Shown here piece after piece: positions 13,904-44,987 of a stretch of DNA of 64,000 bases; positions within the stretch are counted from its first letter, which is position 1, and each line of letters opens with the position of its first letter. Position numbers and translations under genes: made by a program. The DNA comes from a virus. Lineage: Duplodnaviria; Caudoviricetes. The notes beneath the pieces are model-generated. The model did not search any database. It saw only the letters and a program-made list of their open reading frames with translations, and was not told where the DNA came from. Location: the IMG/VR virus record IMGVR_UViG_3300032327_000348, positions 32,001 through 96,000 of that record; one strand, written 5' to 3'.

Positions 13904-13922
13904 AATACCCTTATTTATGCTT

Positions 13923-23583: not shown

Positions 23584-26500
23584 TCAATTGTATTTATTAC
23601 TAAAATACTCTTTTAGCCAAGGCCAATCATAACTTAGTCGTAGTTTGTCTAAATCACCATTGAATGATTCATAGTATTCTACAGCATCTGTGGCACCATC
23701 GATACTATATTGGGCAAAGTCACCTATACCTACAGTTGACCATGTTTTCAATCTGTCTCTACTTACCGGGCTATCATCTAACTTTAGCTTAATTGCTTCA
23801 CGGAAGCTAGTACGCCACGTACTAAATTCGTCAGTGTTGTATCTTGCAACACCGCTATTCAATTCAACAACTTCGTGTTCATTGTCCAACGTAAAGTCAA
23901 GACCTTTACCTATGTTACCCAATGTAATCTGTTTATTGTATGCAATCATAGCTTGGTGACCATACACTAATCCATTGACAGGGTTACTTGCATAAAAAAT
24001 ATAATGCTTTGGTACTTGTAATCTATCTGGTTGCCAACTGAAATCAAACCTACTGTTGACTCGTAACTTAGCAAATACAGTAAACATCCAAGGTGTGTTA
24101 CTTGCTTCTGCAGCCGCGTGATAGGCTTGTACACGACCATTTACACCATCAACTCTAACAACTCTATTAGATAACCCCTTAGTCACGCTCAGTAAGTGTT
24201 CATAGTTCTCGTCAGCGCCGGTTTCACCGTTGCTTAGGAAGACTATATCCAGTGGCCGGGATGTTGCTAGTTTGTTAGATTTAGCAATGTATGGGTAATC
24301 ATACAATTCATTGTTGACATATTCTTTGGCTTCTTTAGGTACAACAATACATGTTCCACCCGTACTAGTAATTAGTATGTTCTTAGATTCTTTTGACCAT
24401 AAACTAATTGGTTCATTGTCAACAACTTTTATTTCTTTGTTGTCTGATGTAATGAATGTAGCATAAGGCCAATCAAAATCAGTATTAGTAACAGAGACAT
24501 GTGTATCACTTTCAGTTATAAAGCTAGGAGCAGGTAAACGTTTTACTTGTTGATGTTGATTGAAGTTAATCTTATCGATATTTTCTAATGTATCTAAATC
24601 TTCAACCAATGTACGCAAACGGTTTACATTGATAAAGAATGTATCGCCGTATTTTTGTTTATCACTAGGGAATACATGCAGTTGTTCCAATGAGAACGGG
24701 TCACATATATAAGTGAAGTCAAAGTTAGTGTAGTCGCAGATAGAACTACACACCCAGATATAGTGATCTTTTTTAATACCCAACTCATACAGCATGTTCT
24801 TCAACGTAGACAAATAATCACCGTCATATTCAATGGTGTAAACATTCTTCTTTGTTTTGTTTTCAAGCAATGATATGATATTATCTATGTTATCATTGCC
24901 ATAGTCAATCAAGTACACATCATATATACAATTGCTTGCGAGTGCTCGTTTTGTTTTAACAAAATTGAGATTATTCAAATGTTCTATGATTTTTACATAC
25001 TTTGTGTCTTCGGGGAACGATTCTTTATTAACTAAGAAAGTTGTACCCCAATGACTCCATTGAGTACCAAACACATGTACCATTTTTTGTTGCCATGGAC
25101 TAGGGTAATAATCAAATGTAAAATCAGTATAATCTAGTTCACTGTTCAATATCCAACACAATTCTGTTTCAGATTTATTGATACAACGATTAATAGTATC
25201 AACCCAACTGTTTAAATACCTTGTCTTTTGAATCTTGGGATAACGTTTTTGTAATTCTTCAAAACGATATTTGCTTTCTATGTTGCTCTTATCAACAAAG
25301 AACATACTCAAGTTACTATCAACTTCAACTTTCTGATCCTCAACATAGTTAAACTCTCTATGACCCATCATGTATAGTGGTGCGTTAACATAGTAAGTTT
25401 GTGTGTTCTTACTATAGTCGTTGCCGAATACGTTAATGTGTCTAAAGTTTTCTTCGTTTGGTTTCCAATTAAAATCAAATTTATCATAATTCAAGTCAGG
25501 GTTGATAGCCCAGAATACTTCATCTTGATGTTGTAATATCAAATCTTCAAGTGTCGTTTTAATCTTGTAACGATTAACTACTGCCTTGCGGGTTTCTTCT
25601 GTTCGTTCCATGAACACAACTTCTGTTGCTCCGGGCACTGTGTATCTAGGACCGTTGTCAGCCCATTGATATATCTGAGGTGGACTGTGTGGGTTAGGTC
25701 TCCAACTAAAGTCAAATGTTTTTAAATCATCGTTGTTGTTTACTGTCCACAATGACATATCAATCTTAGGTATAGCAAGAGGATAGTCCATGTATTTTTT
25801 AATAGTGGCTCCGGGTACAATGTACTCTACTGTTGGTTCAGTCGCACTATCATTCCATTTGTTACCAAAGACATATATCATAGGTGGTTCATATAGATTA
25901 GGGTCAGGCCTCCATCTAAAATCAAAACTATTCATATCAATAGGAATAACTATATTCCATCTGTCCCATTCAGGTGCCAAGTCAACAATATCCATATACT
26001 TGTACTCAGTTGCACCCGGTACATGATATTCAATAGTGGGTTTTTGTTCTGCTGGATAAAATTTGTTACCCCATACATATATGTAGGGTGGACTTGTTGG
26101 GTCGGGTCTCCATGTAAAATCAAACTTAGTTCTATCCACTGGTTGAATTTCTCGCCATCTATCTAATTCAGGTAATACTTCAACCAATTCACTCATATAC
26201 TTGTACTCAGTTGCACCCGGTACATGATATTCAATTGTAGATTGTAATTCTCCGGCAACATGTTTGTTACCCCATACATATATGTAGGGTGGCTCGTGTA
26301 AGTTAGGATCCGGTCTCCATGTAAAATCAAACTTATTTCTATCCACTGGTTGAATCTCTTGCCATCTATCCCATTCTGGTTCTAAATCAACAATACCCAT
26401 GTATTTTTTATCAGTGGCGCCCGGTACTGTATATTCTAATGTAGGTTTAACTTCAGCAGGGTCATATTTGTTACCCCATACATATATGTAGGGTGGACTT

Positions 26501-27489
26501 GTTGGGTCGGGTCTCCATGTAAAATCAAACTTATTTTTATCTATATCGCAATAAACAGTCCAATTATCAGATGGCTTGAGAGCAACATCTTGTGACATAT
26601 GCTTGATGTTAGTCGCACCCGGAACGATATATTCTACTGTGGGTTTTAAATCACTACCATAATGTTTATTACCCCATTGATAGATATAATCAGGTTCTTT
26701 TGGATCGGGAATCCAACAATAGTCAAAATCAATAACATCTTCATGTGTAACCCAATGTTCTGTAGTGGGCAATAATGTTAATAAGTTTGACATGTACTTA
26801 CGTTCAGTAGCGCCCGGTACGTGATACTCTAATGTTGCTTGTGTCTCACCTGGAACATATTTGTTCCCCCACACATAGATATACGCAGGCTCACGTGGAT
26901 CAGGTCTCCATGACATATCAAATTTGTTTTTATCAACTTTATAAAATTCGACCCAACATTCACTATTAGGTAACAATTCTACAACATGATTCATATACTT
27001 GATTTGCGTTGCATTAGGAGTATGATACTCTAAGCAAGTTTTTAATTGTACGGGTGCAAATTTACTACCCCACTTATAGATATAAGGTGGATCAGTTGGG
27101 TCAGGATGCCAACTAAAATCAAATTTAGCACTATCAATTAAATCTAATTCTACCCAATGTTCTGTTTTAATATCTTTTCGTTTAACAATATCAACATCTG
27201 CACGATAGATAGTCAGTGGGTCATCGTTATCTGTGTTACACAACCAAGTGCCACTATCTTTTTGATGTTGACTTGGCCATACATTGTTATGTTCTTGTGC
27301 CCATACATCTTCGTCAGGCAAGAAATCAAAATCAAAATCCCAATCAAAATTTCGATAATCACATAATTCGTTAATTATCCAAAAATGTTCTGTAGTAGAT
27401 TGACTTCTAGCATCAGTTAAATCAATTGCGTGTCGTTCTCTTGGGTGGACATTCGGTTTTTTACCGTAATAAAATACATCTCTTAACAT
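23584..27489 (-). CDS. 1301-aa repeat protein with several degenerate glycosyltransferase-like domains
   Basis: Eight ~66-aa FDFxWxPDP...PYIYVWGNK...EYHVPGAT repeats. The C-terminal domain aligns by eye with the 41849..42802 protein (LDIVFLS..E, RVDGV.G...H.AA.EAS.T, NPVNGLVYG, WR..FRE..K). Confidence 0.8.
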   Translation of the reverse strand: MLRDVFYYGKKPNVHPRERHAIDLTDARSQSTTEHFWIINELCDYRNFDWDFDFDFLPDEDVWAQEHNNVWPSQHQKDSGTWLCNTDNDDPLTIYRADVDIVKRKDIKTEHWVELDLIDSAKFDFSWHPDPTDPPYIYKWGSKFAPVQLKTCLEYHTPNATQIKYMNHVVELLPNSECWVEFYKVDKNKFDMSWRPDPREPAYIYVWGNKYVPGETQATLEYHVPGATERKYMSNLLTLLPTTEHWVTHEDVIDFDYCWIPDPKEPDYIYQWGNKHYGSDLKPTVEYIVPGATNIKHMSQDVALKPSDNWTVYCDIDKNKFDFTWRPDPTSPPYIYVWGNKYDPAEVKPTLEYTVPGATDKKYMGIVDLEPEWDRWQEIQPVDRNKFDFTWRPDPNLHEPPYIYVWGNKHVAGELQSTIEYHVPGATEYKYMSELVEVLPELDRWREIQPVDRTKFDFTWRPDPTSPPYIYVWGNKFYPAEQKPTIEYHVPGATEYKYMDIVDLAPEWDRWNIVIPIDMNSFDFRWRPDPNLYEPPMIYVFGNKWNDSATEPTVEYIVPGATIKKYMDYPLAIPKIDMSLWTVNNNDDLKTFDFSWRPNPHSPPQIYQWADNGPRYTVPGATEVVFMERTEETRKAVVNRYKIKTTLEDLILQHQDEVFWAINPDLNYDKFDFNWKPNEENFRHINVFGNDYSKNTQTYYVNAPLYMMGHREFNYVEDQKVEVDSNLSMFFVDKSNIESKYRFEELQKRYPKIQKTRYLNSWVDTINRCINKSETELCWILNSELDYTDFTFDYYPSPWQQKMVHVFGTQWSHWGTTFLVNKESFPEDTKYVKIIEHLNNLNFVKTKRALASNCIYDVYLIDYGNDNIDNIISLLENKTKKNVYTIEYDGDYLSTLKNMLYELGIKKDHYIWVCSSICDYTNFDFTYICDPFSLEQLHVFPSDKQKYGDTFFINVNRLRTLVEDLDTLENIDKINFNQHQQVKRLPAPSFITESDTHVSVTNTDFDWPYATFITSDNKEIKVVDNEPISLWSKESKNILITSTGGTCIVVPKEAKEYVNNELYDYPYIAKSNKLATSRPLDIVFLSNGETGADENYEHLLSVTKGLSNRVVRVDGVNGRVQAYHAAAEASNTPWMFTVFAKLRVNSRFDFSWQPDRLQVPKHYIFYASNPVNGLVYGHQAMIAYNKQITLGNIGKGLDFTLDNEHEVVELNSGVARYNTDEFSTWRTSFREAIKLKLDDSPVSRDRLKTWSTVGIGDFAQYSIDGATDAVEYYESFNGDLDKLRLSYDWPWLKEYFSNKYN
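25600..27150 (-). repeat. Intragenic tandem repeat of ~200-nt units
   Basis: Near-identical DNA blocks, e.g. gtcgggtctccatgtaaaatcaaactta at 26101 and 26506, and catatacttgtactcagttgcacccggtacatgatattcaat at ~25993 and ~26194. Limits approximate. Confidence 0.85.
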
Positions 27490-27499
27490 AGATACTTAC

Positions 27500-29005
27500 T
27501 TATGATATAACTTTAACATTATACATTAATTCAAAGCGATCGGCATCTTTTCGGTTATTTACCATTGGCTCACCGCGGATGTTTAGGCTAGTGTTCAATA
27601 ACATTGGACATCCTGTCATGATATACCATTTTTCAAGGAGTTCTCGTATTCCACTTCCATCTGACGGCACTGTCTGGACACGACTAGTCCCGTCGTGATG
27701 AACAATAGCAGGAAATAAGTCAGGTACCCTACAACGGGCGATTGACTGCATATACCTGCTGTTACTGAAACCATGAGGCATATCAAAATACATATCAGCA
27801 TACTCCTCCAGAATGACTGGCGCAAATGGTCTAAATTTTTGTCTTCGTTTAATTTCATTTACTTTGTCCTTGATTTCTGTTCCTCTAGGGTCTGCAAGTA
27901 GGCTTCTATTTCCCAAGGCTCTTGGTCCAAACTCGGCTCGGCCATTGGCTACACCCACTATTTTATCGGATATTAATATATCAAGTAAATTGTTTACGGG
28001 ATATTTACCATCTATGTTATATCCTAGGTATGCATTACTCCATTCTACTTTATACCCATATCCTAAACAGGCTGCTCCAAGACTAGAACCAGCATCGCCG
28101 GGATTAGGCATGATCCATATATTATCAAAATAATTACCTAATAATCTATTCGCTAAACAATTTAACGCAACACCGCCACCGTATACTAAGTTCTTACTAC
28201 TACCTAACATTCGTGCTTTGCTAATAACATTTTTAATAAGTTCTTCAGCAATCAGTTGTGCGCTACAGGCAATGTCCATATTATCAGCACCCTCAATGAA
28301 ATCATCAGGTACTCCTATGTGTAAATTGTTTCTAAAAGTAATATCTTTATATGATTTTACTAATGTGTCAGACATTTCTTTTAATTCTTTTGATAGATTA
28401 GATTTGCCGTATGCTGCCATACCCATCAGTATGTATTCTTCATCCAACGGTTTTAGTCCCACTCTTTGTGTCATAGCACTATAAAATAAACCAATGCTAT
28501 GTGGATATGTTTGTCCCCACAATTTTTTATATTGTGCCAAGCCGTTCTTATCGTACCACGCATCATAAATGCTAATGGTATCAAATTCACCAATAGCATC
28601 AATAACAACCACCGTGGCATCATCATGAGGACTTGTTTGAAACCCTGCTGCCGCGTGACTTAAGTGATGGTTGTGTGTATGAACTTTGCCACCACGACCA
28701 TCTTGAAGATGATGTAATAATCTAGTACCAATTAATTCTTTAACAGACAAATTAGATAATTTAGGCTTTTCACCTGAACGCACTTGTCGTAAAAATTTCA
28801 TCCACGGGCGTTCATAGTAATGTATTTCTACGTCACGTGATGTGAGGTATGATATAGCATCTTCTATTAAACCATAGCATAGGTATTTGTTATGTTTGCT
28901 TTTACTGTACCGTTCGCTATGACCAGCAAATAATATATTACCATTGTCATCGAGTACGCTCAATGCGGCATCATGGAAGCCGCATGATATTCCAATATAG
29001 TTCAT
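27500..29005 (-). CDS. NodU/CmcH-family carbamoyltransferase
   Basis: GISCGFHDAA, HHLSHAA, DAIGE, MGMAAYG, GGVALNC, PGDAG, EFGPRALGNRS, FRPFAP, LNTSLN. Confidence 0.95.
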   Translation of the reverse strand: MNYIGISCGFHDAALSVLDDNGNILFAGHSERYSKSKHNKYLCYGLIEDAISYLTSRDVEIHYYERPWMKFLRQVRSGEKPKLSNLSVKELIGTRLLHHLQDGRGGKVHTHNHHLSHAAAGFQTSPHDDATVVVIDAIGEFDTISIYDAWYDKNGLAQYKKLWGQTYPHSIGLFYSAMTQRVGLKPLDEEYILMGMAAYGKSNLSKELKEMSDTLVKSYKDITFRNNLHIGVPDDFIEGADNMDIACSAQLIAEELIKNVISKARMLGSSKNLVYGGGVALNCLANRLLGNYFDNIWIMPNPGDAGSSLGAACLGYGYKVEWSNAYLGYNIDGKYPVNNLLDILISDKIVGVANGRAEFGPRALGNRSLLADPRGTEIKDKVNEIKRRQKFRPFAPVILEEYADMYFDMPHGFSNSRYMQSIARCRVPDLFPAIVHHDGTSRVQTVPSDGSGIRELLEKWYIMTGCPMLLNTSLNIRGEPMVNNRKDADRFELMYNVKVIS

Positions 29006-29007
29006 GC

Positions 29008-29109
29008 TTACTTGTAGATAAACGGATCTCGTTTTTTAAGTTCTTTAAGACGCTTGCGATAATAAATTTCCATTCGAATTTTATTTATTAAATTTTTAAT
29101 CCATTTCAT
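29008..29109 (-). CDS. 33-aa basic peptide upstream of the carbamoyltransferase, not in the ORF track
   Basis: AAGGAG SD, then MKWIKNLINKIRMEIYYRKRLKELKKRDPFIYK*. Fills the intergenic gap. Confidence 0.75.
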   Translation of the reverse strand: MKWIKNLINKIRMEIYYRKRLKELKKRDPFIYK

Positions 29110-29118
29110 ACTAACTCC

Positions 29119-30459
29119 TTATTGTGTTTTACATTCATCGTAGAATTTTGCTAGTTCAGGAAACGTATTAACAAAATTCAAATTTCGCTTGCTATCAAAG
29201 TCATCAAACCATGTAGCAAATCTTTGTTTAAGCATAGTATTGTCATTCTTATTGAATCTAATGCCATCACGTAGTTTAATTAAAAAATCAGTATAACCGG
29301 GCCATGTGCCAAATTTGTCACTAACATCTGGCATATCTACTGATATACTTTGCATCCAATCAATTGCAGGATCTAAGTAGTCAGCAAATTCAAAAGGAAG
29401 TATGAACGGTGATTGAACGTCGGGATGTGTCACTATATTTTGTTTAAGCATAACTGCTTTGTTATGTGTCTTAGATAAATCATAGACCCACTTGAGAAAC
29501 TTAGGGAATCTTGGTATGGCCAACGCAGTGACGCTTGGTAAGAATGCCAATTCAATATCAGCCTTACTAGCAAATAATTTATTTACATTACTTTCAAAAC
29601 GATTCCACTCTAATCCATTGCGAATATATTCAGCTTGGTCATTCAATGCTTCCATACTAATGTGAACTTCTAATATGAACTTTTCTGACAGTTTAGGAAT
29701 GTATTCTAAAAACTTGTTATAGTAATTGTTTGTGGCATTTAGATTAGTAACCACCCAGATTCTAGTTTTAGGAACTTCTTTGTCAGCGTATACTTCTAAC
29801 AACTTGTCTAGAAAATCATAGAACTCAGGTGTAATTAGTGGTTCGCCCCCAATTATACCTATTCTGTCTAATGAATGTTTTGCCTTAGTATTGACCCATT
29901 CCCAAAATAAATTAATGAATCTTTCATTGGGATTTGATTGTACTTGCTTGTATATTTCTATATTGATAGAGTTGTTCTTCAAACTTTCAGCAGCCCATTG
30001 ACTACTGTATACGTGATTGCAATACATACACTTCATGTCACAAGTGTTGCCTAGACTTACTTCAAGCATGAATGGATTGTTGCTTTCTAGTATTTTACTG
30101 TCTATCGTTACTTGATTAGCAATCTCTATAAGTGTAGGAGGGGTGAATTCCTGAAACATCTGATGTTTGTTGGCATAATCTATAAACCCATATGGATTGT
30201 TACCCCTTAAACTCTTTGCTCCTGCTTGTTCAAGGCTCCAACAGCTTTTACAATCAGAATGTTGTACGCCTTGAAGCATTTCCATTCTTCGTTTCTTCTG
30301 ATAATCAGTATTTAGAAAAATGTCTGTTCCATACTCATCCATCATTCCATCATTGATAGTTTGAAAGGGTGTCTTACAACAAGTGCGAATTTCATTTCGA
30401 GACAGGCTAAAGTTAGGGTACCCCCAACGCAGGTGACATACGGTATCTTCATTATTCAT
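29119..30459 (-). CDS. Radical SAM protein with an N-terminal twitch/SPASM-like domain
   Basis: CDMKCMYC, GGEP, N-terminal C...CC...CxxCW. Probable start 30459 (track: 30477). Confidence 0.9.
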   Translation of the reverse strand: MNNEDTVCHLRWGYPNFSLSRNEIRTCCKTPFQTINDGMMDEYGTDIFLNTDYQKKRRMEMLQGVQHSDCKSCWSLEQAGAKSLRGNNPYGFIDYANKHQMFQEFTPPTLIEIANQVTIDSKILESNNPFMLEVSLGNTCDMKCMYCNHVYSSQWAAESLKNNSINIEIYKQVQSNPNERFINLFWEWVNTKAKHSLDRIGIIGGEPLITPEFYDFLDKLLEVYADKEVPKTRIWVVTNLNATNNYYNKFLEYIPKLSEKFILEVHISMEALNDQAEYIRNGLEWNRFESNVNKLFASKADIELAFLPSVTALAIPRFPKFLKWVYDLSKTHNKAVMLKQNIVTHPDVQSPFILPFEFADYLDPAIDWMQSISVDMPDVSDKFGTWPGYTDFLIKLRDGIRFNKNDNTMLKQRFATWFDDFDSKRNLNFVNTFPELAKFYDECKTQ

Positions 30460-30542
30460 AATTGTATTTAGTAACATGTTTTTGTAAAATTTATTAATTT
30501 ATGACTGAAAACAGCCCCTGATAAATACCATATAAAGGATTT

Positions 30543-31589
30543 GTGATGGAGATAACACCTGGAAAACCCATAAGAACATATGGCGTGAACGGATCATGGA
30601 GAGATTGGTCAACTGACGAACTAGTTGGAGCAAAATTAAACTACTTAACTGATTGGAAGTGTGGGGCCGGCGTCGATAGTTTATTCATCGATATGGATGG
30701 TGGTGTTTGGACTGCCAGTTGCAGAGTGGGAGGTAAGTTGGGTAGTGTTTGGGATGATTTTAGTGTACCTGAAGATTGGATTAATTGTACTAAAAATGTC
30801 TGTAGTTGCGGTGCTGACTTGTTCATCCCAAAAACAAGTACACTAGAATACAAACCCTTATTGCGTAAGGGTCAAGATTTACCTACCCAGCACGAATTAC
30901 GAAATGATGAATTAACAGAATTTGTTGGTATGGAGCGCACTCATGCTAGTACACAAAAACAAGTGTACTGGGAAATAGGTCGTAGATGTAATTACGATTG
31001 TAGTTATTGCTGGCCCTGGATTCATAATAATACCGACCCACACAAGCCACTAGAAGATTTAATGAGGGCTACTCATTTGATTGAAACTAAATTCACCAAA
31101 GGTGAGAGTGTTAATTTCATTATTAGTGGTGGAGAACCAACCGTCAATAAAGATTTCTTAGATTGGTTACGATACTTAAATGCATGTGGACACCATGTGA
31201 GTTTACATAGCAACGGCTCACGATTACCTGACTATTACAAAGAGATTATTCATTATGGTGATTTGAACCTTAGTGTTCACTACGAGTTTTATGACCGTGC
31301 TAAATTTGTCAAGGTCGTTGAAGCAATTGCTAAAGAAAAATCTGAACACGGTGATTGTGGTCACTTAGAAGTTAAGTTCATGATGGCTCCGCATAATCGT
31401 GAGGAAACATTAAGTTTGGAAGCAGAATTAAAAGAATTGCCATTTTTCAAAGAATACTGTACATGGGCTATTGTTCCTATTCGCGGTGATTTGAATAACA
31501 AGACTAGTGCCCCTAATACAGGGTCGGGAAGTGAAGTCATGATTGGTTACACTAAAGAAGATTATATTTTGTTTGGGGATAGAAAATAA
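30543..31589 (+). CDS. Radical SAM protein with an N-terminal auxiliary Fe-S domain
   Basis: CNYDCSYC, SGGEPT, HSNGSR. N-terminal WKCGAG...C...C...CSC. Confidence 0.9.
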   Translation: MMEITPGKPIRTYGVNGSWRDWSTDELVGAKLNYLTDWKCGAGVDSLFIDMDGGVWTASCRVGGKLGSVWDDFSVPEDWINCTKNVCSCGADLFIPKTSTLEYKPLLRKGQDLPTQHELRNDELTEFVGMERTHASTQKQVYWEIGRRCNYDCSYCWPWIHNNTDPHKPLEDLMRATHLIETKFTKGESVNFIISGGEPTVNKDFLDWLRYLNACGHHVSLHSNGSRLPDYYKEIIHYGDLNLSVHYEFYDRAKFVKVVEAIAKEKSEHGDCGHLEVKFMMAPHNREETLSLEAELKELPFFKEYCTWAIVPIRGDLNNKTSAPNTGSGSEVMIGYTKEDYILFGDRK

Positions 31590-34193: not shown

Positions 34194-35040
34194 TTTTATG
34201 TGCAATAATTGTAGCAAAACTTTTTACTGAATCTAAATTTGGATGTGCATTTTTAGGAGAAACCCAAAATTTTGGGTTTTGCCCAGTAACCTCTAAGAGT
34301 GCACTAGTCCACGATTCTCCTACAGATGGGTGTATATCCTCAGTTGGAGTAAAATTAACCCAACATTTAGCATCTAATGATTCGACTAGGCGAAGTGTAT
34401 CTACGAAAATTCCAGAATTAAATGATAGAGATTGTTTTGTAAAATCGTTAGAAGAGCCTAATGCTCGATAAAAAGTATAAGATATACCATTTAATCGTAG
34501 AAAATTTTCTAAAAGCAATATATTTTTAATATAGTTAATATACAAATCTACCTCATCCGCGTTTATTAAAACAACTTTTATATAATCTTCATAATCTAAT
34601 ACAAAATCATTTTTTCCTAACTGATTAGGATTTAAATTTATAAAACCTTTTGATTTTTTAATAAATTTCATAGCTCTAGCAATACTAGACCATCCTATTA
34701 CTACGTGATAGTTATGTCTATCTTCTATTGGAATAGACAATATATAATTTACAGTAGATAGTGAAATCATATCGTTGCTTTTTCCTTCATTCGACAGATC
34801 AATTTTATTATCAGTATCGATACCTACTAACTCAGATACAACGTGTGGCAAGTTATATTTTCTCTTATAAACGTTGTGGTACTCATTCCAAGTATCTCTG
34901 TTTTCATTAGTATGTTGTTTTGACGAAACCGTCGTAAACCATTCCCATGATAACTTATTACCTACTTCTTTTGAATAATTATCCCATACAAGTTCGTCAC
35001 CTGCCATAAAACTACAACCATTAAACACTATTTTTTTCAT
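34168..35040 (-). CDS. SGNH/GDSL-like hydrolase or acyltransferase-like protein
   Basis: N-terminal FNGCSF (GDS-like), DLS..GKSN, IGWS...R, C-terminal HPN. Confidence 0.65.
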   Translation of the reverse strand: MKKIVFNGCSFMAGDELVWDNYSKEVGNKLSWEWFTTVSSKQHTNENRDTWNEYHNVYKRKYNLPHVVSELVGIDTDNKIDLSNEGKSNDMISLSTVNYILSIPIEDRHNYHVVIGWSSIARAMKFIKKSKGFINLNPNQLGKNDFVLDYEDYIKVVLINADEVDLYINYIKNILLLENFLRLNGISYTFYRALGSSNDFTKQSLSFNSGIFVDTLRLVESLDAKCWVNFTPTEDIHPSVGESWTSALLEVTGQNPKFWVSPKNAHPNLDSVKSFATIIAHKIKEDKCLD

Positions 35041-35042
35041 AA

Positions 35043-37365: not shown

Positions 37366-38755
37366 ACTTCTTTAACATCTCATATAGTTTAGGAAAAGTA
37401 TCGTTGAATGAATCTTTACGATAATCATCATGTAAACGTGTTTTATCAAAAAATGTTTTTAACAGTTCTTCATCATATTTAGATCCATACATAAAATTAA
37501 TAATATTGTCAATGGAGGGCGACCAATTGGTCAATAGATTGTGTACATCTATAGATAGCAATTGTTCTTTAATTATATCTTTAACTTCATTGGGAAGATT
37601 TACAATAGAATAATGATGCGGGTAATGGACTAAATTCAATACTACTTGCATGCCATAGTCTTTAACAAACTCAAAGAATTCTTTTAGATATAACACATTT
37701 AGTATACCAACTGTTGTATAGAATTTTAATATTATGTTAACGTTGTACTTTGCAGCCAATTCTTTATATTGTGCAATATTTTGCAATACTTCATCCCACT
37801 TAGCATTCTTACGTTGAAATTCAAAACGAGAACCAATATCGTCTATACTAAAGTTTATTCCAACTTCCTTAAAGGGAGCCCATAGTTTAAAGAATTCTTC
37901 ATCACAAATAGTACCGTTGGTATTGTAGTACAGACTAGTATTTGCCGGTGTGCCGAACTCATTTATAATACGTAATATTTTATCATGCTCTTGTTGCATT
38001 AATGGTTCGCCGCCATAGAATTCTAAATATTCAATAGTAGGAGCCCATTGTTTTAATATTTCTTCATTGTTAAGATTCTCAGAAAACTTTTCTCTTGCAT
38101 TGCTAGTAAAAGTTTTAACATCACCCATATCAATAACTTTTAAATCAATTATTTCTTTCATCCACTGAGTACTTAAAAAAGGTGTGCATATTCTACACTT
38201 GAGATTGCACAAATTACTTAGTTTTAAATCTAAAGTTTTTGGATACAGTCTAGGTATATGATGGAAAAATGTAGCATAGGGATGTTCTTTACCGCCCTTT
38301 TCTTTAGTTAGCCTCATACTGGGTATGCCAGCGGCTTCTTCATCCCAGCATGCCTTGCAACCAGTGGGACGTTCATTTCTAAGAAACTGATCTCGTAAAT
38401 TTTGAAATTCAGGCTGCTCCCATAATTCACCTATATCTACCTCAGGTAATTTAGGAACATTTTGTTGCCATGTAGGATCACCTACTTTATACTTACAACA
38501 AGGACGTGCTCTACCATCTGGATCTAATTGAAAATGTGTAAAGGGATATAAACAAAAATTATCCGGGACCTGTTTTCTCAAAGTTTCGGTATATTCAGGT
38601 TCATACCCCGGTTCTTTACCGTAATGTGGAGAATTTTTAATAATACTCAATAAATCTAAATTATAGGTTTCATCAAGTAATTTACTAGTAAACCATACAA
38701 AAGATCCTTTACCGTCATCTTCTTTATAGATAGGTATGAATTGTTTCTTATCCAT
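37358..38755 (-). CDS. Radical SAM protein with an N-terminal twitch domain
   Basis: CNLKCRIC, GGEPL, TNGT. FCLYPF...PCC...CKACW. Paralog of 36184..37365. Confidence 0.92.
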   Translation of the reverse strand: MDKKQFIPIYKEDDGKGSFVWFTSKLLDETYNLDLLSIIKNSPHYGKEPGYEPEYTETLRKQVPDNFCLYPFTHFQLDPDGRARPCCKYKVGDPTWQQNVPKLPEVDIGELWEQPEFQNLRDQFLRNERPTGCKACWDEEAAGIPSMRLTKEKGGKEHPYATFFHHIPRLYPKTLDLKLSNLCNLKCRICTPFLSTQWMKEIIDLKVIDMGDVKTFTSNAREKFSENLNNEEILKQWAPTIEYLEFYGGEPLMQQEHDKILRIINEFGTPANTSLYYNTNGTICDEEFFKLWAPFKEVGINFSIDDIGSRFEFQRKNAKWDEVLQNIAQYKELAAKYNVNIILKFYTTVGILNVLYLKEFFEFVKDYGMQVVLNLVHYPHHYSIVNLPNEVKDIIKEQLLSIDVHNLLTNWSPSIDNIINFMYGSKYDEELLKTFFDKTRLHDDYRKDSFNDTFPKLYEMLKKYE

Positions 38756-40140
38756 TATAAACCTTTACACATGTTATAAAAGTCAGTGTATTCTGGGAAT
38801 GTGCCAGTTAACTGTAATCCTCTGCGTGAATCATAAGTGTCAAACCACTCAGCGAATTTCTTTCTGTCATTTAATCTATCAATTGATTGATTGTTAATAC
38901 CATCAATAATAGTTTGTAGGAATTTAGCATACGCTGACCATGTACCAAGTGAATCTTTTACAGGTGGCATTGATTCAGCATTATCATTTAGATACTGTAT
39001 TGTATCTTCTATGTATGGAATAAAGTCTTGTGACAATATCATCGGACTTTGCCAACTAGGGAAGCTAACTAAGTTTTGCTTCAATGTGACTGGTCTACCA
39101 TGTTTTTCGTATAGTTCTTTTGTGTAGGCAATAAAGTTTTTACTACTGGTTATATTCAATGCGTTAACACTCATGATGAACCCAAAATCAAACTCTAGTT
39201 CTTTGTTGGATAATATCGTATCGATGTTCTTAGTGAATCGTTCCCAACTAACGCCATTGCGAATGTACTCTGCTTTGTCTCCCACACTCTCCATGCTACC
39301 TAATATTTCTAAGTTAAATACTTTGGATATCTTGGGTAGATACTGCATTACCTTCTGAAGATAATTTGATGGTGTATTAAAGTTACTTACTATCCATAGT
39401 GTAATCTTTTCTTTGCGTGTATGATTAATTTCTTCAACGCTAGCAATAACTTTATCCATGAAAGTATAGAACTCAGGCATGATTAGTGGTTCGCCACCAA
39501 TCAATCCAAGTCGTGTTATACTATGGCGTCCAACCTTATTAAACCATTCCCAGAACTTACCGTCAAAACTAGTGGGTGCTTTGGGAAATTCTCTATCGTA
39601 TTGTTCTTGTGTTATCTCGTTATATTTGATGCGCTCAGTTGCCCACTGTGTAGAATAATGATGACTACAATACATACACTTCAAGTCGCATGTATTTCCC
39701 ATACTGATTTCCAACATGTATGGTTTGTAACTATACAACGCTGGATGATTTATATCATTGATTTTACTTAATTCTAGTGAAAGTTTTTCATCAGAATATT
39801 CACTAGGTGCTACTTGTTTAGACTTGATTAATTGCCACCACATTTGTTTAGGATGATGGCGTGGACTCTGTATGCCTGATTCTTCTAGTCGCCAGCAACT
39901 GACACATGCTTCAGTTTTACGACCTTGTATCAAGTCCAATCGTTCTTGCCGTTGCTTTGGAGAATTCAAGAAAGCATCAACGCCAAATTCTTGTAACTCG
40001 TTCTCTGTTACTAGACTAGTAGGCGTTCTACAGCAACTTCTAAACTCACCCCTATCCATACCAAATATAGGATAGTTCCATTTTAAATCGCATATAGTGT
40101 CTAATGGGCCAACATTAGTTGCATTAGTTATTATTTTCAT
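38755..40140 (-). CDS. Radical SAM protein with an N-terminal twitch domain
   Basis: CDLKCMYC, GGEPL. CDLKW...SCC...CVSCW. Paralog of the 29119 gene. Confidence 0.92.
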   Translation of the reverse strand: MKIITNATNVGPLDTICDLKWNYPIFGMDRGEFRSCCRTPTSLVTENELQEFGVDAFLNSPKQRQERLDLIQGRKTEACVSCWRLEESGIQSPRHHPKQMWWQLIKSKQVAPSEYSDEKLSLELSKINDINHPALYSYKPYMLEISMGNTCDLKCMYCSHHYSTQWATERIKYNEITQEQYDREFPKAPTSFDGKFWEWFNKVGRHSITRLGLIGGEPLIMPEFYTFMDKVIASVEEINHTRKEKITLWIVSNFNTPSNYLQKVMQYLPKISKVFNLEILGSMESVGDKAEYIRNGVSWERFTKNIDTILSNKELEFDFGFIMSVNALNITSSKNFIAYTKELYEKHGRPVTLKQNLVSFPSWQSPMILSQDFIPYIEDTIQYLNDNAESMPPVKDSLGTWSAYAKFLQTIIDGINNQSIDRLNDRKKFAEWFDTYDSRRGLQLTGTFPEYTDFYNMCKGL

Positions 40141-40152
40141 GAGTTATAGTAG

Positions 40153-40905
40153 TTAGGTTATTGAATTATCTATTTTACTTTTTATTGTCAATAATTGGTC
40201 ATAATTAGTAATCATTGAACTATACGGAAGGTCATATAATTTTAGTAAACCCGGTGTTGAGTTAAACGGTATCATATTGGATGTGCAGTCTGATTTCAAT
40301 GTTTGATAATTAACAGTCACACAATCGATCTCCTCTGCCATCTTTTGTTTAGTATCATATGCTAGTAAAAATTCAGTATACAATACTTCAAACTTATATG
40401 TATCCAATGTGATATTAGGAGCAATAATATTTTTTTGTTTCCCATTAATGGTACTATACCAATATTCATTATTTGTATTCCAGTGGTGAGCCACTCCGGT
40501 GTCTATAGCTACCAACAAACTTATGGTACTATCAAACGGGTCTCTATTAATATTGACAATCTTAAATCCATATTCTTTAATTTTTTTAAGATGTTCTATG
40601 TCATCTGTAACTTGATTTGGCCAGTACATGTATTTTATAATGACTGATTGATTTTTTGATCCACGTGATAAAATATCTAATCTAGAATTTATAAAGTCAT
40701 TTTTAGAAATTTCTATAATAGTTTTTTCTTCTTTAAATGCACAGATTAAACCAGTAGCGTTTACTTCATAATGTTTATCATCTACAAATGGCGTGAAAAA
40801 TTCATCTAAATTAATAAAATTTTTAACGTTATATAAGTTAAAAGCAATTCCATTGAGCAGCCAAGAACTTCCTGTTCTAGGAATACTAAGTACGCAATAT
40901 CTCAT
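40153..40905 (-). CDS. Sulfotransferase-like protein (Stf0/PAPS-binding type)
   Basis: N-terminal VLSIPRTGSSWL (5'-PSB-like loop) and RDPFDSTIS (3'-PB-like R...S). Confidence 0.6.
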   Translation of the reverse strand: MRYCVLSIPRTGSSWLLNGIAFNLYNVKNFINLDEFFTPFVDDKHYEVNATGLICAFKEEKTIIEISKNDFINSRLDILSRGSKNQSVIIKYMYWPNQVTDDIEHLKKIKEYGFKIVNINRDPFDSTISLLVAIDTGVAHHWNTNNEYWYSTINGKQKNIIAPNITLDTYKFEVLYTEFLLAYDTKQKMAEEIDCVTVNYQTLKSDCTSNMIPFNSTPGLLKLYDLPYSSMITNYDQLLTIKSKIDNSIT

Positions 40906-41849
40906 AATTGTTCCTTTGTACTCATGATGTCAAAATTACAGTGACACATTGTTTTATTACAAATGACAGGTGTTTTAGTTACTTCAAAATTTTCAAAGAT
41001 GTTGCCAATCTTGCCGCCAACTTTACACCATCCTCTAAACACATCTCCAGACAAGTCAACAACAATTTGTTCTTCTCCACTGTAGCATTTCCATCCACTC
41101 CAATCATTTGTCTTTTGACTAATGAATCTATGTGCGCTAGATACAATTTCTGTGCCATCTTCTTTAACCATCTTCATAGCACCTCGATAGTAATCAAATG
41201 ATTTGGTATATTTGATGTGTTTAACAATTAATTCATGTTGCTTATCAAAAATCTTTTTCTGAAAATCATCATAGTCAAACAATGTATCACCAAAATCATG
41301 AATCAATGGTTGTAGTGCCATACTGATGTTACCCAATGTTTTAACTTTGTTTGCGATAGCATAACAGAAGTCAAACTTCTCTGGACTCATCATAATGTTT
41401 ACGTGTGTTCTTACATCATTATTTAATAACTTAACTACTTGAACAAAGTGGTCAGCATCAGCAAACTCAGGATGAAAACTTAGACACACGTGGTCAAAGT
41501 ATTGTTTGTTATCTTCCCACCAACGTAGTGTTCTACTACCATTGCTAATTAATCCCACCTTAGCACCAAGCGCAGTAGCATGTTGGCAAATTTCAGTGAA
41601 GTGTTTATATAGTGTTACTTCTCCACCTGTCAACTCATAATATACTTTTCTAGGAGCAACTTGTTCAGATACCCTAGTCATAAATTGTTTAATCTGTTCT
41701 ATCTCAGGCCACTTTATGCTACCTGAGTGAAGGTCATCTGGACAATAACTACATTCAAAATTACAAGTGTTGCCTAAGCACCAGTTAACTACGAACCAAT
41801 CTTCATGTGTGGGATTACTGTGTGCTAATTTAATATAGTCGTGTTGCAT
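40902..41849 (-). CDS. Radical SAM protein with a C-terminal auxiliary Fe-S domain
   Basis: CNFECSYC, TGGEVT, ISNGSR. C-terminal WKCYSG...WC...C...CHC. Start 41849 from TAATG coupling. Confidence 0.92.
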   Translation of the reverse strand: MQHDYIKLAHSNPTHEDWFVVNWCLGNTCNFECSYCPDDLHSGSIKWPEIEQIKQFMTRVSEQVAPRKVYYELTGGEVTLYKHFTEICQHATALGAKVGLISNGSRTLRWWEDNKQYFDHVCLSFHPEFADADHFVQVVKLLNNDVRTHVNIMMSPEKFDFCYAIANKVKTLGNISMALQPLIHDFGDTLFDYDDFQKKIFDKQHELIVKHIKYTKSFDYYRGAMKMVKEDGTEIVSSAHRFISQKTNDWSGWKCYSGEEQIVVDLSGDVFRGWCKVGGKIGNIFENFEVTKTPVICNKTMCHCNFDIMSTKEQL

Positions 41850-42802
41850 TACCATCCTTCTATTTTTCTAATAACGTCCATTTCTTTTACTAATGGTCCG
41901 AGATTATATTTATCGGCACTATAATGGCGTTTGAAGAACTTGCTTTGAGATCCGTCAAAGTGATGCATTGGTAAACCAAGTTTATCAGTCAATGCTAAAC
42001 CTATTAATCCTGATTGACGATCAGGGTCTCGGTTTTCGTGTTCTTCCCATAGTACAGTATAGTTATCAAACCATTGCACATTAGCAGGATCCCATTCTGT
42101 AAGCATAGTCATGTATGTACCAAGTCTTGCACCATAAATAGCCCATTCTCCGTTCTCCACATCACGACCAATATTGTGCCAAATAGTTAAGTTATTTAAG
42201 TTGCGGCTTGCTACTGATTCTTTTAATGTATCTACTGTAGGTTTTGCCCCTCTATCAAGAACCATTTTCACACCTTCACGGAAACCTGCACGCCATGCTT
42301 GAAACGGTGTATGGTTTGGATAGGTAGTAGAATAGCAGTCATGCATTGCCCAGTATAAGTTATCTTTGCTATCTAAACAAAAATCAGCAATACGAGACAC
42401 ATCTCCATCTTTTTGATGTTCATGTGTTTGCATCTCACGCACATAAGTCTTTGTCCAACTACTCATGCCACCGTTACCATAACGTAGCCCGTTGATTGAG
42501 TTAGTTGCTTTCCAACGAAATTGTGCTAACTTAAAGTTAGGATCTTTCTCAGTGAAATCTAATTGTAGGTTAAAGAAACTTTCTTCTGGCATGTTGTCCC
42601 CATCAATCAGAATAAAACGTTCAGTATCGCTTGCTTCACCTGCTGCTTTGTGTGCGGCATCACTACCTTTAACGCCATCAACACGCTTTGCCCATGGTAC
42701 CATGTTTTTAATTTTTAACCAAAATTCTTCTTTTTGTGGTTCGTCATAACTGAGATATATGCAATCTAAATCAGCTATGTCTACAATATTATCCAAGTTC
42801 AT
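41849..42802 (-). CDS. Phage glycosyltransferase-like protein (GT-A fold, DxD)
   Basis: LSYDEP, AHKAA, FILIDGDN (DxD), NGLRYGNGG, AWRAGFREGVK. Confidence 0.7.
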   Translation of the reverse strand: MNLDNIVDIADLDCIYLSYDEPQKEEFWLKIKNMVPWAKRVDGVKGSDAAHKAAGEASDTERFILIDGDNMPEESFFNLQLDFTEKDPNFKLAQFRWKATNSINGLRYGNGGMSSWTKTYVREMQTHEHQKDGDVSRIADFCLDSKDNLYWAMHDCYSTTYPNHTPFQAWRAGFREGVKMVLDRGAKPTVDTLKESVASRNLNNLTIWHNIGRDVENGEWAIYGARLGTYMTMLTEWDPANVQWFDNYTVLWEEHENRDPDRQSGLIGLALTDKLGLPMHHFDGSQSKFFKRHYSADKYNLGPLVKEMDVIRKIEGW

Positions 42803-43139
42803 ATATGTTTAATTTCCATTTAATAGTTTCGCCGGTGTAATCGTTAGGGACTATGATACTGATATCTTCTTTAGCGCATTTTACACCTTCTGTGGTGTTG
42901 GGCGTTAATCTTGTTACGACCAAACTAGAATTTATTGTTGAGAGTTTACCATTGACTATTCTTATGTCAGGTCGAGCCTGAGCAAAAGTAATACTGTCAA
43001 TGACTACATAATTTCCTTCTATCTTCTCACACGTATATGTTATTACTTTACCTTGATCATCGTAATATAATCTAAATTCGGGCGGGATAATTTTAGGTGC
43101 TTCCCAAATTATAAAACTATCTTCTATGCTTTCATTCAT
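42789..43139 (-). CDS. Hypothetical protein
   Basis: 116 aa, coupled within the glycosyltransferase block. Confidence 0.7.
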   Translation of the reverse strand: MNESIEDSFIIWEAPKIIPPEFRLYYDDQGKVITYTCEKIEGNYVVIDSITFAQARPDIRIVNGKLSTINSSLVVTRLTPNTTEGVKCAKEDISIIVPNDYTGETIKWKLNIYELG

Positions 43140-43885
43140 AATATACCCTCATTAATTATAGTTGCAAAATCCTTAATATGATAATGTAAGGGGTAATGTT
43201 GTGGATATGTGTTGATTCTTATTTGATCCGATAAACATTCAGTGACCAATACATCTGTCCAATTTTCAGATGGCATGCCATTTATATATTGTTTCATGTG
43301 TGTCATACTCAACAACCCGGGTATTTGAGTTTTTTCTTTACCCAAAATATGACAAGCAATTGAGTATGCCCAGTCAGTTGTTGCTTCTTCTTGTGGATTA
43401 CATTTCAATATTGCCTTATAGTCTTTCCAATTCTCAAATACATCTCTGACAATTTCAAAGAACTTTTTGGCAGTATCTGATTTTTTAAAATATGTAATAG
43501 CGTTATAACACTCCGGTAAATTGTTATCATCAATGAATTTGCGATAGGCACGTACATTAGATATTTCACCTTTAAAGTTTCTGATAGTGTCACATACAAC
43601 TACATCACGCTGACCTAATGTATCCCATAGATAATCTAAACTATTTGGTATGTACATGTCTGCTTCCAACTTAATTGTCTCGTCATATGGACTACATTCA
43701 TAAACTTGCCAATCATTCTGCAACTTCCAATTTGTATGAGGTGCTTGGTCTCCGTAGGGCAACATTTCGGTAGTGACAATCGTTATATTGGCGTCAGGCA
43801 TTACTCGTTTAATACTTGCCTTTAGTGTTGTAGCACACTTGACATAATTTTCACCTTGTGCCATAATTACAAAGCCTTTGGTCAT
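43136..43885 (-). CDS. Glycosyltransferase-like protein (GT-A fold)
   Basis: KGF.I.A, SIK, SPYDETIKLEADM (ExD in place of DxD), PLHYH. Paralog of the next gene. Confidence 0.65.
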   Translation of the reverse strand: MTKGFVIMAQGENYVKCATTLKASIKRVMPDANITIVTTEMLPYGDQAPHTNWKLQNDWQVYECSPYDETIKLEADMYIPNSLDYLWDTLGQRDVVVCDTIRNFKGEISNVRAYRKFIDDNNLPECYNAITYFKKSDTAKKFFEIVRDVFENWKDYKAILKCNPQEEATTDWAYSIACHILGKEKTQIPGLLSMTHMKQYINGMPSENWTDVLVTECLSDQIRINTYPQHYPLHYHIKDFATIINEGIL

Positions 43886-44685
43886 TTAATGAGCTCCATA
43901 AAAATATCTTTGTTCATAGTATGAAAGTCTGTGTTTTTAATTGTAATATATTCTTTGCGAATTTTACCACGTTGCCAATTATCATACATGATTGTGTAGT
44001 CTGTATTAAATTCATCATTGTTGTTATTATAAACTAAGGTGTTTTTGCCAACGTGTACTAAATTCCACGGAATGATGTCTTCTTTAGGACTTGTGTGCCC
44101 GTTAACAATTCTTGTTGCTAGTGTTAGTGCATAGTCATTACGATACACGCCGGCAATAAAACTATGAATGTTTGCGTAATGGTCATAATTATTTTGAATC
44201 ATCTCCAAACATTCAAAAATTTGTTTTGCTCGGTTTGTTTTTCTAAACATCACTACAGTAGCCCATAATGTTTTAAAACTATATGCACTTAATACTTCTT
44301 GTGCTACTCCGGGATGCATTAAGAAACTAGTAGTGTCATGGCAACAAAAATCTGTAGGTATATCAAATAATCTTAATAGAGTAGTTGAATTAACTACATA
44401 ATCGGTGTCAAGCAAAATAGTGTCATCATATGGACTTAATTCATATGCCTGATATCTACCTTTATTAATCCAAACTGAGTGCTCTCTGATATTATTCTTA
44501 TCTGGTTCAACAACAATAGTATTGTCAAACTGATAGTCAGGGTTTGCCGGGATAGATGTTATATCTGTCACAACTGTTACAGGTAGATCCAAAAAGTGAT
44601 TAATGCGTTTAGCAGTTGCTACTGCCATTTCATAGTATTTGTACTTTGGTGAGTTAAACGCAAATAATAATGCGCCTTTGCTCAT
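43882..44685 (-). CDS. Glycosyltransferase-like protein (GT-A fold)
   Basis: KGALLFAFN, SPYDDTILLDTDY (DxD), WATV..FRK, YRNDYA, H.MNK. Confidence 0.7.
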   Translation of the reverse strand: MSKGALLFAFNSPKYKYYEMAVATAKRINHFLDLPVTVVTDITSIPANPDYQFDNTIVVEPDKNNIREHSVWINKGRYQAYELSPYDDTILLDTDYVVNSTTLLRLFDIPTDFCCHDTTSFLMHPGVAQEVLSAYSFKTLWATVVMFRKTNRAKQIFECLEMIQNNYDHYANIHSFIAGVYRNDYALTLATRIVNGHTSPKEDIIPWNLVHVGKNTLVYNNNNDEFNTDYTIMYDNWQRGKIRKEYITIKNTDFHTMNKDIFMELIK

Positions 44686-44987
44686 CGGTTACCTTCTAGT
44701 TCTTTCCATTCTTTATACCATTCTAGCATAACGGTATTATATGTAGTTTGTAGTAACTCTAATAAGTGTTCACGATTAACCTGTACCGGATTAGAAAATG
44801 TATCAATCATGACAATATAATTGTCTGTGAATGAATTTAAAAAAGAAATGGTTTGTTGGTCGGCCTTCCAGAGTCCACCTTGATCAGCAACCGTTAGTTT
44901 ACTATCATACTTATCTTTAAGTTGGGCTTTTGCCGAGTTGTGATTGAAGCGGGCTTTGGCTTCTAAAATTAAGGTCTTTGTATCCAT
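44682..44987 (-). CDS. Hypothetical protein
   Basis: 101 aa, AGGAG SD, late promoter core at 45003-45009. Confidence 0.75.
   Translation of the reverse strand: MDTKTLILEAKARFNHNSAKAQLKDKYDSKLTVADQGGLWKADQQTISFLNSFTDNYIVMIDTFSNPVQVNREHLLELLQTTYNTVMLEWYKEWKELEGNR

Follow-up and report, generated by a model that had tools for sequence, protein, structure and literature searches.

What would a bacteriophage build with eight radical S-adenosylmethionine (SAM) enzymes encoded beside its tail-fiber genes? Radical SAM enzymes catalyze reactions that rank among the hardest in biology. The eight in question belong to an island of enzyme genes within a 64,000-nucleotide stretch of phage DNA (hereafter the window), which comprises bases 32001-96000 of the linear, 111,934-bp IMG/VR virus record IMGVR_UViG_3300032327_000348. 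Comparison with related loci revealed that the island is a constant block of fiber-like and glycosyltransferase-fold genes joined to a hypervariable array of radical SAM genes; the window, with its eight radical SAM genes, stands at the rich end of this variation. Our tentative preference, held with less than even confidence, is for a soluble cytoplasmic pathway that would assemble and then chemically edit a glycan-type decoration and that is genetically tied to the tail-fiber module.

Scanning IMG/VR with an alignment of GTA, an island protein with a GT-A glycosyltransferase fold, matched at least 586 stretches, 80 of which were kept as loci for synteny analysis. The gene order FIB2-FIB1-p101-GT8a-GT8b-p116-GTA (two fiber-like proteins, a small protein, two GT8-like proteins, a second small protein and GTA) was constant in 80/80 loci, one or two of which had an extra copy or no detectable p116. 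FIB1 was always directly upstream of p101 and the glycosyltransferase genes. Radical SAM genes directly followed GTA wherever downstream sequence exists, and the array was closed by genes for a carbamoyltransferase and the repeat protein REP where the locus extended far enough. In each of the 48 loci whose downstream sequence spans the full 10 kb, 1-7 radical SAM genes were counted. The array genes include those for members of NF033640 (N_Twi_rSAM, hereafter N_Twi), a family with a twitch domain N-terminal to the radical SAM core and a curated whole-protein cut-off of 170 bits. The 235 N_Twi open reading frames (ORFs) fell into 37 clusters at 40% identity, with a median of only 26% identity to any of the five window N_Twi proteins, whereas GTA was 59-90% identical across loci. 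A hypervariable array beside a stable GTA is what one would expect if the product were an exposed structure under selection. The G+C content is 0.30-0.33 in the radical SAM array (32000-38000) and 0.36-0.41 in the fiber and flanking genes; the low value is consistent with cassettes of foreign origin.

The eight radical SAM ORFs all lie within 13 kb, each with one canonical CxxxCxxC motif, just as an earlier note on this DNA had read them from the letters. Pfam Radical_SAM (PF04055) was over its cut-off in seven of the eight proteins; the product of 38755-40140 scored 23.1 bits, but passed NF033640. Searched in all six frames, the entire 111,934-bp record gave exactly eight Radical_SAM matches, all at window positions 29,100-41,900, so their clustering is not a matter of chance. 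Four genes (29119, 36184, 37358 and 38755) encode members of NF033640; the product of 35043 falls just short, and the two small enzymes sR1 and sR2 as well as a B12-binding enzyme (31590) lie outside the family. All five N_Twi and N_Twi-like proteins bear a four-Cys SPASM/twitch domain ahead of the radical SAM core, with the four N-terminal cysteines invariant. In the small pair, the Cys-rich domain is C-terminal in sR1 and a homologous stretch is N-terminal in sR2 (residues 141-299 of sR2 match 23-174 of sR1, and residues 23-97 match 240-314), so that each is a circular permutation of the other. The count in the earlier note, seven enzymes with auxiliary Cys domains and one that binds B12, therefore stands as five N-terminal twitch enzymes, sR1, sR2 and the B12-binding protein. 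The latter reached no equivalog model (the best NCBIfam match being PhpK, 110 bits against a cut-off of 600) and matched AprD4 weakly among solved structures (9e-7); its C-terminal ~400 residues, about half of the protein, have no family assignment.

None of the island enzymes reached the cut-offs of the characterized cofactor families MoaA, PqqE and QueE (16-64 bits against 206-381 overall; at most 63.9 versus 284, 18.3 versus 381, and at most 31.2 versus 206-260 bits, respectively), and the island holds no partner genes of these pathways. The earlier note had named membership of such families as grounds to refute its reading, and on this point the reading survives. Viperin (NF038283, cut-off 180 bits) was not reached either, the best score being 59.7 bits for sR1, which was also far under the cut-off of the STM4011 model. 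When the N_Twi profile was compared with the PDB, the twitch part resembled the C-terminal auxiliary domain of BtrN (6e-8) and the radical SAM core resembled viperin (1.7e-8), SkfB, MoaA and BlsE; SkfB, SuiB and CteB were among the weaker matches. The nearest solved relatives act on sugars or nucleotides, which suggests, without establishing it, that the island enzymes have small substrates of these kinds. A literature search for twitch radical SAM enzymes acting on nucleotide sugars found nothing. The family itself is large: a profile of the five island paralogues matched 6,325 clusters (50% identity) at E<=1e-30, and two-module fusions (800-870 residues) are numerous among its database entries.

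The sugar context comes from the constant block. The predicted structure of GT8a gave 241 Foldseek matches at E<=1e-3 (best 2.7e-6), including glycogenin, LgtC, GlyE, UGGT and GT6. For GTA, GT2 enzymes were at the top of the Foldseek results, a modest match (best E 6.5e-4, TM 0.25-0.36, VIA Z 9.6 over residues 5-165 against a background of 7-8). Its DGD motif is nearly invariant among homologues, and its family counts more than 8000 clusters at 90% identity, every one of them named 'hypothetical'. A GT-A fold together with a DxD-type motif was found in both GT8a and GTA, which lack a sequence-family match, and with GT8b three proteins of this kind are counted. Sequence searches of the PDB with GTA, the GT8 pair and REP returned nothing usable. 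The REP repeat unit reads FDFxWRPDP..PYIYVWGNK..EYxVPGA, and its C-terminus is a GT-A-like domain that aligns to GTA with VFAK in place of DGD, and thus without a DxD. The family comprises at least 2064 clusters of 800-2260 residues, a range that indicates a varying number of repeats, and tblastn of the repeats against cultured phages gave no match. The three GT-A-like proteins (41849, 43136 and 43882) and the repeat/pseudo-glycosyltransferase protein (23584) that had been recognized earlier are in agreement with these folds and motifs.

The strongest internal evidence linking the two classes of enzyme is a recurrent fusion. In one close relative (L006), repeat-like units, a GTA-like domain that keeps its DGD and a radical SAM domain like that of sR1 are joined in a single 938-residue ORF. 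The longer relatives of sR1 form 18 clusters, 11 of which (P0242-P0252, 560-940 residues) have the GTA-like::sR1 architecture, and the window genes for GTA and sR1 overlap by 7 nt. Fusion and overlap together suggest that the radical SAM enzyme and the sugar-transferase-fold protein act on one substrate.

Table 1. Features of the island and its surroundings; positions count from the first base of the window.
Feature	Position	Strand	Evidence and remarks
Class I methyltransferase, DegT-type aminotransferase and NDP-sugar (nucleoside diphosphate sugar) epimerase/dehydratase genes	10664-15924	-	8-13 kb from the island
Permuted (two-piece) transfer-messenger RNA (tmRNA)	23297-23578	-	Rfam RF04321, 85.8 bits; directly after the REP gene
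REP, 1301-aa repeat protein	23584..27489	-	~12 repeats of 66 residues; right-hand island boundary
O-carbamoyltransferase, NodU/CmcH/TobZ type	27500..29005	-	PF16861 161.5 bits and PF02543 119 bits, both over cut-off
Unannotated 33-residue peptide (33 codons) ending ...KRDPFIYK	29008..29109	-	between 29119 and the carbamoyltransferase
N_Twi radical SAM enzyme	29119..30477	-	NF033640 246.5 bits; 40% identity to the product of 38755-40140
sR2, small radical SAM enzyme, N-terminal twitch domain	30543..31589	+	permuted counterpart of sR1
B12-binding radical SAM enzyme, 867 aa	31590..34193	+	PF02310 44.5 bits (cut-off 32.1), then PF04055 53 bits
SGNH-type esterase or acyltransferase (DUF6071)	34168..35040	-	DUF6071 26.6 bits, just under the cut-off of 27
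N_Twi-like radical SAM enzyme, under family cut-off	35043..36191	-	NF033640 158 versus 170 bits; SPASM 31-94, Radical_SAM 123-290
N_Twi radical SAM enzyme	36184..37365	-	NF033640 308.6 bits
N_Twi radical SAM enzyme	37358..38755	-	NF033640 333.3 bits
N_Twi radical SAM enzyme	38755..40140	-	NF033640 247.3 bits; CDLKCMYC motif
Sulfotransferase-fold protein, accessory cassette gene	40153..40905	-	PRTGSS and RDPFDSTIS motifs
sR1, small radical SAM enzyme, C-terminal twitch-like Cys domain	40902..41855	-	Radical_SAM 39.7 bits
GTA, GT-A-fold (GT2-like) protein, DGD motif	41849..42802	-	model pLDDT 77
p116, conserved small protein	42789..43139	-	no family match; place between GT8b and GTA kept
GT8b, paralogue of GT8a	43136..43885	-	BLASTP to GT8a 3e-6; alignment in common with GT8a; phrog_1903
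GT8a, retaining GT-A (GT8-like) fold protein, DTD motif	43882..44685	-	AlphaFold2 pLDDT 71 (folded with ten homologues)
p101, conserved small protein	44682..44987	-	no family match; position kept in 80 loci
FIB1, Ser/Thr/Gly-rich fiber-like protein	45033..45983	-	31% Ser+Thr; weak homology to RsoM2USA ORF355 beside tail genes
FIB2, fiber-like structural protein, C-terminal intramolecular-chaperone domain	45992..47215	-	Peptidase_G2/IMC 25.1 bits versus cut-off 25
p206, first gene of the constant block	47247..47867	-	phrog_11259 1.3e-66; left end in nearly all 80 loci

The enzymes at the far end of the island and within the array would suit the finishing of a sugar. The carbamoyltransferase has NovN (1e-50), GdmN and TobZ (9e-35) as homologues and stayed below the NodU equivalog model (135 versus 1000 bits); the earlier assignment to the NodU/CmcH type agrees with both of its Pfam domains. 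Directly upstream of it lies the unannotated 33-residue peptide, full-length copies of which preceded a carbamoyltransferase gene in 15 of 17 cases. Ten of its residues are invariant, and identity is 55-79% across phage contigs and three contigs from metagenome-assembled genomes (MAGs). Codons often differ synonymously (12 synonymous versus 7 non-synonymous changes in one comparison at 71% nucleotide identity). The peptide may be a partner or regulator of the carbamoyltransferase. DUF5989 (PF19451), a family of small proteins beside O-carbamoyltransferases, was set aside as its family, as the Pfam model matched none of the six reading frames of the record at E<=1 and the likeness is positional only; a literature search for the motif DPFIY found nothing.

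The sulfotransferase-fold protein had no match in sequence searches of Pfam, NCBIfam and the PDB. In the ESM Atlas, its features scored 0.95-0.96 to Stf0 and Sulfotransfer_3 clusters and its structure aligned with NodH and Stf0 clusters at TM 0.58-0.69; this resemblance and its motifs are compatible with the 3'-phosphoadenosine 5'-phosphosulfate loop reported for it earlier. The gene comes and goes among relatives, being missing from three of the close ones (L001-L003). The SGNH-type protein, for which PDB sequence searches likewise gave nothing usable, has invariant S10, G, N89 and H266 in 8 homologues, in line with its earlier SGNH-like reading, and a homologue in a distant locus (L027) scored 31.9 bits on DUF6071. 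It is a highly variable allele, with 30-84% identity among otherwise close relatives, and like the sulfotransferase-fold gene it is gained or lost from locus to locus.

On the other side of the glycosyltransferase genes, the Ser/Thr-rich tail genes that had been noticed earlier proved to be FIB1 and FIB2. The N-terminus of FIB2, a protein with 20% Ser+Thr, matches phrog_14394 'virion structural protein', and its chaperone domain is typed in Table 1. FIB1, from its composition and its unvarying position, is a candidate glycan acceptor. Further upstream, a giant ORF, longer than 5,300 codons (48038-64000, minus strand), runs past the window end; its relative place upstream of the fiber and glycosyltransferase block equals that of ORF361, a 2,541-residue structural protein, in the Ralstonia jumbo phage RsoM2USA.

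RsoM2USA provides the only cultured counterpart of the constant block: among 50,697 GenBank phage records, it was the sole match for GTA (40% identity) and for GT8a homologues, and megablast with the island DNA matched none of these records. Its ORF355-348 (MG752970) encode a fiber-like protein, a small ORF, two GT8-like proteins, another small ORF, a GTA-like protein, one N_Twi radical SAM enzyme and a domain like the REP C-terminus, and every gene of ORF348-355 is annotated 'hypothetical'. Unlike the window, this block contains a single radical SAM gene and no carbamoyltransferase, sulfotransferase, SGNH or long repeat protein. It adjoins the tail sheath ORF359 and the structural proteins ORF356 and ORF361, and virion proteomics of this phage covered the ten strongest gel bands only (PMC8504454). 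Three MAG contigs of 183, 148 and 43 kb (L058, L060 and L075) bear GT8a, GT8b, GTA, carbamoyltransferase and micropeptide homologues at 34-76% identity (34-63% for the four enzymes alone). These contigs, labeled 'Haliscomenobacter' and 'Legionellales', were rejected as bacterial context because they carry the phage block, and are probably, by gene content, jumbo-phage DNA binned into MAGs. The earlier note had allowed that related clusters might exist unannotated, and they do, in hundreds of IMG/VR contigs. The contrast between constant block and variable array in 80 contigs, the GT-A-like::radical SAM fusion, the 33-residue peptide and the one-enzyme version in culturable RsoM2USA are new here. 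The block-array contrast and the peptide had escaped the earlier note, as had the occurrence of N_Twi enzymes in settings other than glycans.

Another IMG/VR scan, with one N_Twi protein, returned close loci of the same gene order (L001-L006), intermediate loci (L007 and L009) and distant loci (L011-L029). The distant cassettes share N_Twi, B12-binding radical SAM, sR1-like and DUF6071 genes with the window and add a cytidylyltransferase-like gene. The cultured, 255-kb Vibrio phage K566 (L191) has at least three clustered N_Twi-like radical SAM genes at 161.5-168.3 kb, with no recognizable tail genes adjoining. N_Twi homologues also occur in many bacterial assemblies, notably of Bdellovibrionales, with up to seven in tandem on complete chromosomes (e.g., L083). 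Among 124 neighboring ORFs on 15 contigs, three of which are the probable phage contigs L058, L060 and L075, the most frequent families were Radical_SAM (38), SPASM (22), PhyH (10), GT2 (5+3), carbamoyltransferase (3) and GDSL (3).

Several lines of evidence converge on a tailored glycan: the GT-A and GT8 folds, the GT-A-like::radical SAM fusion, the matches to BtrN, NovN and TobZ, the nearby DegT and NDP-sugar genes, and the order of fiber, glycosyltransferase and radical SAM genes in 80 contigs and RsoM2USA. The earlier note had proposed a late-expressed pathway building such a glycan, most plausibly on virion proteins; the glycan part is reasonably supported by this evidence, while its late timing and virion target are what we infer from gene arrangement. 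In the pathway we propose, the constant block would supply the acceptor and the scaffold sugars, through FIB2, FIB1, p101, the two GT8-like transferases, p116 and the GT2-like transferase, and the variable array (five N_Twi enzymes, the sR1/sR2 pair and the B12-binding enzyme) would edit the sugars. Each radical SAM enzyme would remove a hydrogen atom from its substrate, either a sugar or a sugar bound to a nucleotide or protein, and thereby epimerize, oxidize, deoxygenate or C-methylate the sugar. To finish the product, the carbamoyltransferase with its putative peptide partner of 33 residues would carry out O-carbamoylation, O-sulfation would follow from the sulfotransferase-fold protein, and the SGNH enzyme would deal with acyl groups. 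The acceptor would most likely be a virion component, either the Ser/Thr-rich fiber proteins or REP, and exchange of cassettes in the array would give related phages chemically different coats. The DegT, NDP-sugar epimerase/dehydratase and methyltransferase genes may be the source of an amino-deoxy sugar for the island.

A virion acceptor is favored because membrane machinery is lacking, the linkage to fiber genes is invariant, and cassette turnover is typical of exposed structures. Among the island proteins, Pfam and NCBIfam searches matched no flippase or polymerase of the Wzx/Wzy type and no initiating phosphoglycosyl transferase, and hydropathy revealed no membrane segment in any of them (top 19-residue value 1.52, threshold 1.6), which fits an acceptor in the cytoplasm, the site of virion assembly. 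Four other explanations were weighed, in falling order of likelihood. The best survivor, host-envelope remodeling, is still unlikely. The enzymes would here alter cytoplasmic O-antigen or capsule precursors (nucleotide sugars or undecaprenyl-linked units), so that the infected cell or its debris stops binding competitors or trapping progeny. The diversity of host glycans would account for the hypervariability, and the bacterial chromosomal N_Twi genes lie beside GT2, GDSL and carbamoyltransferase genes. The authors of the pelagimyophage study proposed the same role for tail-fiber-cluster glycosyltransferases in a region with radical SAM cassettes (PMC7029224). Arguing the other way are the lack of membrane proteins and of flippase, polymerase and initiating transferase just described, the constant partners, which are fiber proteins rather than envelope genes, and the placement of the module inside the structural gene block of a lytic jumbo phage.

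The radical SAM enzymes might instead modify proteins directly, in the manner of maturases of ribosomally synthesized and post-translationally modified peptides (RiPPs), by epimerizing, cross-linking or methylating the fiber proteins, the aromatic-rich REP repeats or the 33-residue peptide, with the glycosyltransferases serving a separate purpose. Many SPASM/twitch enzymes are peptide maturases, and SkfB, SuiB and CteB are among the weaker structural matches; REP offers ~12 conserved repeats rich in Trp, Tyr and Lys, and the island encodes a conserved micropeptide. That micropeptide, however, tracks the carbamoyltransferase rather than the radical SAM array and is conserved while the array changes. 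Pfam and NCBIfam matched no RiPP recognition (RRE/PqqD) domain, protease or transporter/exporter among the island proteins, and the GT-A::radical SAM fusion indicates a sugar context. We regard direct protein modification as improbable.

A diffusible small molecule resembling an aminoglycoside, nucleoside or Nod factor and acting on the host or on competitors is distinctly improbable. It would leave the fiber-gene linkage in 80/80 loci unexplained, extreme cassette turnover would be odd for a pathway with a single defined product, and neither an exporter nor a self-resistance gene was found, although the nearest characterized relatives of several enzymes do come from antibiotic or signal pathways (BtrN, AprD4, TobZ/NovN, NodH and DegT), a distant phage cassette has the cytidylyltransferase-like gene, and a Paenibacillus homologue lies in a polyketide-like cluster. 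Hypermodification of phage DNA or nucleotides, with sugars attached to bases and edited for restriction evasion, deserves very little credence: phage glycosyltransferases often act on DNA (PMC12619734), the radical SAM cores resemble the nucleotide-acting viperin and MoaA, and a thymidylate-synthase-family gene lies at 16204-17109, but the island is embedded in a structural module and lacks genes for a base hydroxymethylase, a kinase, a DNA-glycosylase-like transferase and replication.

Several observations weigh against the glycan-editing pathway that we prefer. No nucleotidyltransferase was found in the 112-kb fragment, which represents only ~32% of the genome, and no glycosyltransferase was recognized among ten proteins checked from the distant cassettes (L011-L029). 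The fold match of GTA is modest, as given above. A Paenibacillus N_Twi gene resides in a cluster of acyl carrier protein, ketosynthase, ketoreductase and GT2 genes, a setting that rules out N_Twi as a sugar-specific family. High Ser/Thr content is usual in fiber proteins and is no mark of a glycosylation site. The heptamer put forward as a 'late promoter' is rarer overall than expected, and the sites named for it are convincing in part only. Timing and target are read from the DNA.

The expression signals illustrate this point. Most neighbors in the minus-strand block overlap by 1-14 nt or sit 2-12 nt apart, in line with the tight coupling proposed earlier. Late-promoter cores had been proposed as well, and that proposal held in part: the ATAAATA at 30521 is a perfect copy, 22 nt ahead of the sR2 start, the site at 45003 is the variant CTAAATA, and those at 30465 and 27497 are weak. 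Many ATAAATA copies stand where a promoter core should, 9-40 nt before a start codon, but the whole window has 22 sites versus 42 expected. TATAAATA, with 2 sites versus 12 expected, was ruled out as a late promoter. Sigma-70-like promoters and intrinsic terminators showed no enrichment inside the island, the lone strong hairpin being at 23240-23261, after the tmRNA. Because these signals are weak or depleted, late expression is a reading of position, packing and a promoter-like heptamer and not a result.

The phage itself is incompletely represented; the IMG/VR record has an estimated completeness of ~32%, and related contigs reach up to 335-367 kb, which places the lineage among jumbo phages of ~350 kb. 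A MoxR/CobS-like ATPase of the phage is 52% identical to its counterpart in Pseudomonas phage PA5oct. A betaproteobacterial tmRNA model also matched the tmRNA at 23297-23578, below its cut-off, a hint that the host, like that of the related phage RsoM2USA, is betaproteobacterial. The 'moraphage' lineage was set aside as the phage group; the study in question (PMC12619734) concerns PolB-encoding Lak relatives with Bacteroidota hosts and leaves radical SAM genes unmentioned.

The closest known systems resemble the island in part. NF033640 covers four island enzymes (246-333 bits, each with an N-terminal four-Cys twitch domain followed by a CxxxCxxC core), but it is a named family without a known reaction, 35043 is under its cut-off, and sR1, sR2 and the B12-binding enzyme are not members. 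BtrN, AprD4, TobZ/NovN, NodU and NodH show domain-level homology to the twitch domain, the B12-binding radical SAM core, the carbamoyltransferase and the sulfotransferase fold. The island proteins nonetheless score far under the equivalog cut-offs of these aminoglycoside and Nod-factor enzymes and are encoded in a phage structural module, and the twitch domain is C-terminal in BtrN and N-terminal in the island N_Twi enzymes. Glycosylation of virions by virus-encoded enzymes has precedents in mycobacteriophage capsids and tail tubes (Freeman 2023, as cited in PMC12619734) and in PBCV-1, whose capsid glycosyltransferase A64R, a soluble GT-A enzyme encoded beside structural genes, is among the fold matches of GTA. 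The PBCV-1 and mycobacteriophage systems are not known to have a radical SAM enzyme, carbamoyl- or sulfotransferase or variable array, and glycosylation by the island is a prediction from its genes. Radical SAM cassettes in the tail-fiber region (host-recognition cluster) of pelagimyophages (PMC7029224) and 12 radical SAM genes in a T4-like environmental genome (PMC5332604) have been mentioned in passing, with no function given. These marine T4-like cassettes likewise place several exchangeable radical SAM genes in the tail-fiber region of uncultured aquatic phages; the window lineage differs as a ~350-kb jumbo phage with a fixed glycosyltransferase block, carbamoyltransferase, micropeptide and REP.

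A more far-reaching form of the glycan-editing pathway is possible but doubtful. It would be a combinatorial radical-chemistry glycan editor, in which a fixed glycosyltransferase scaffold on a tail-fiber or repeat protein is rewritten by a cassette-swapping N_Twi array of dozens of subfamilies, through C-H chemistry undescribed for sugars. Its driving force would be arms races for host recognition or defense, and it would form a virion-displayed counterpart of O-antigen diversity. The part of the module that varies is the N_Twi family, which has no known reaction, and the module recurs in hundreds of contigs from an abundant lineage of jumbo phages, always linked to fiber genes. RsoM2USA can be cultured and has a one-enzyme version, which opens the question to direct test. 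If the product decorates virions, it would represent a previously unrecognized chemical layer of host-range or immune-evasion variation in phages, and the arrays would be a rich source of new sugar-editing enzymes.

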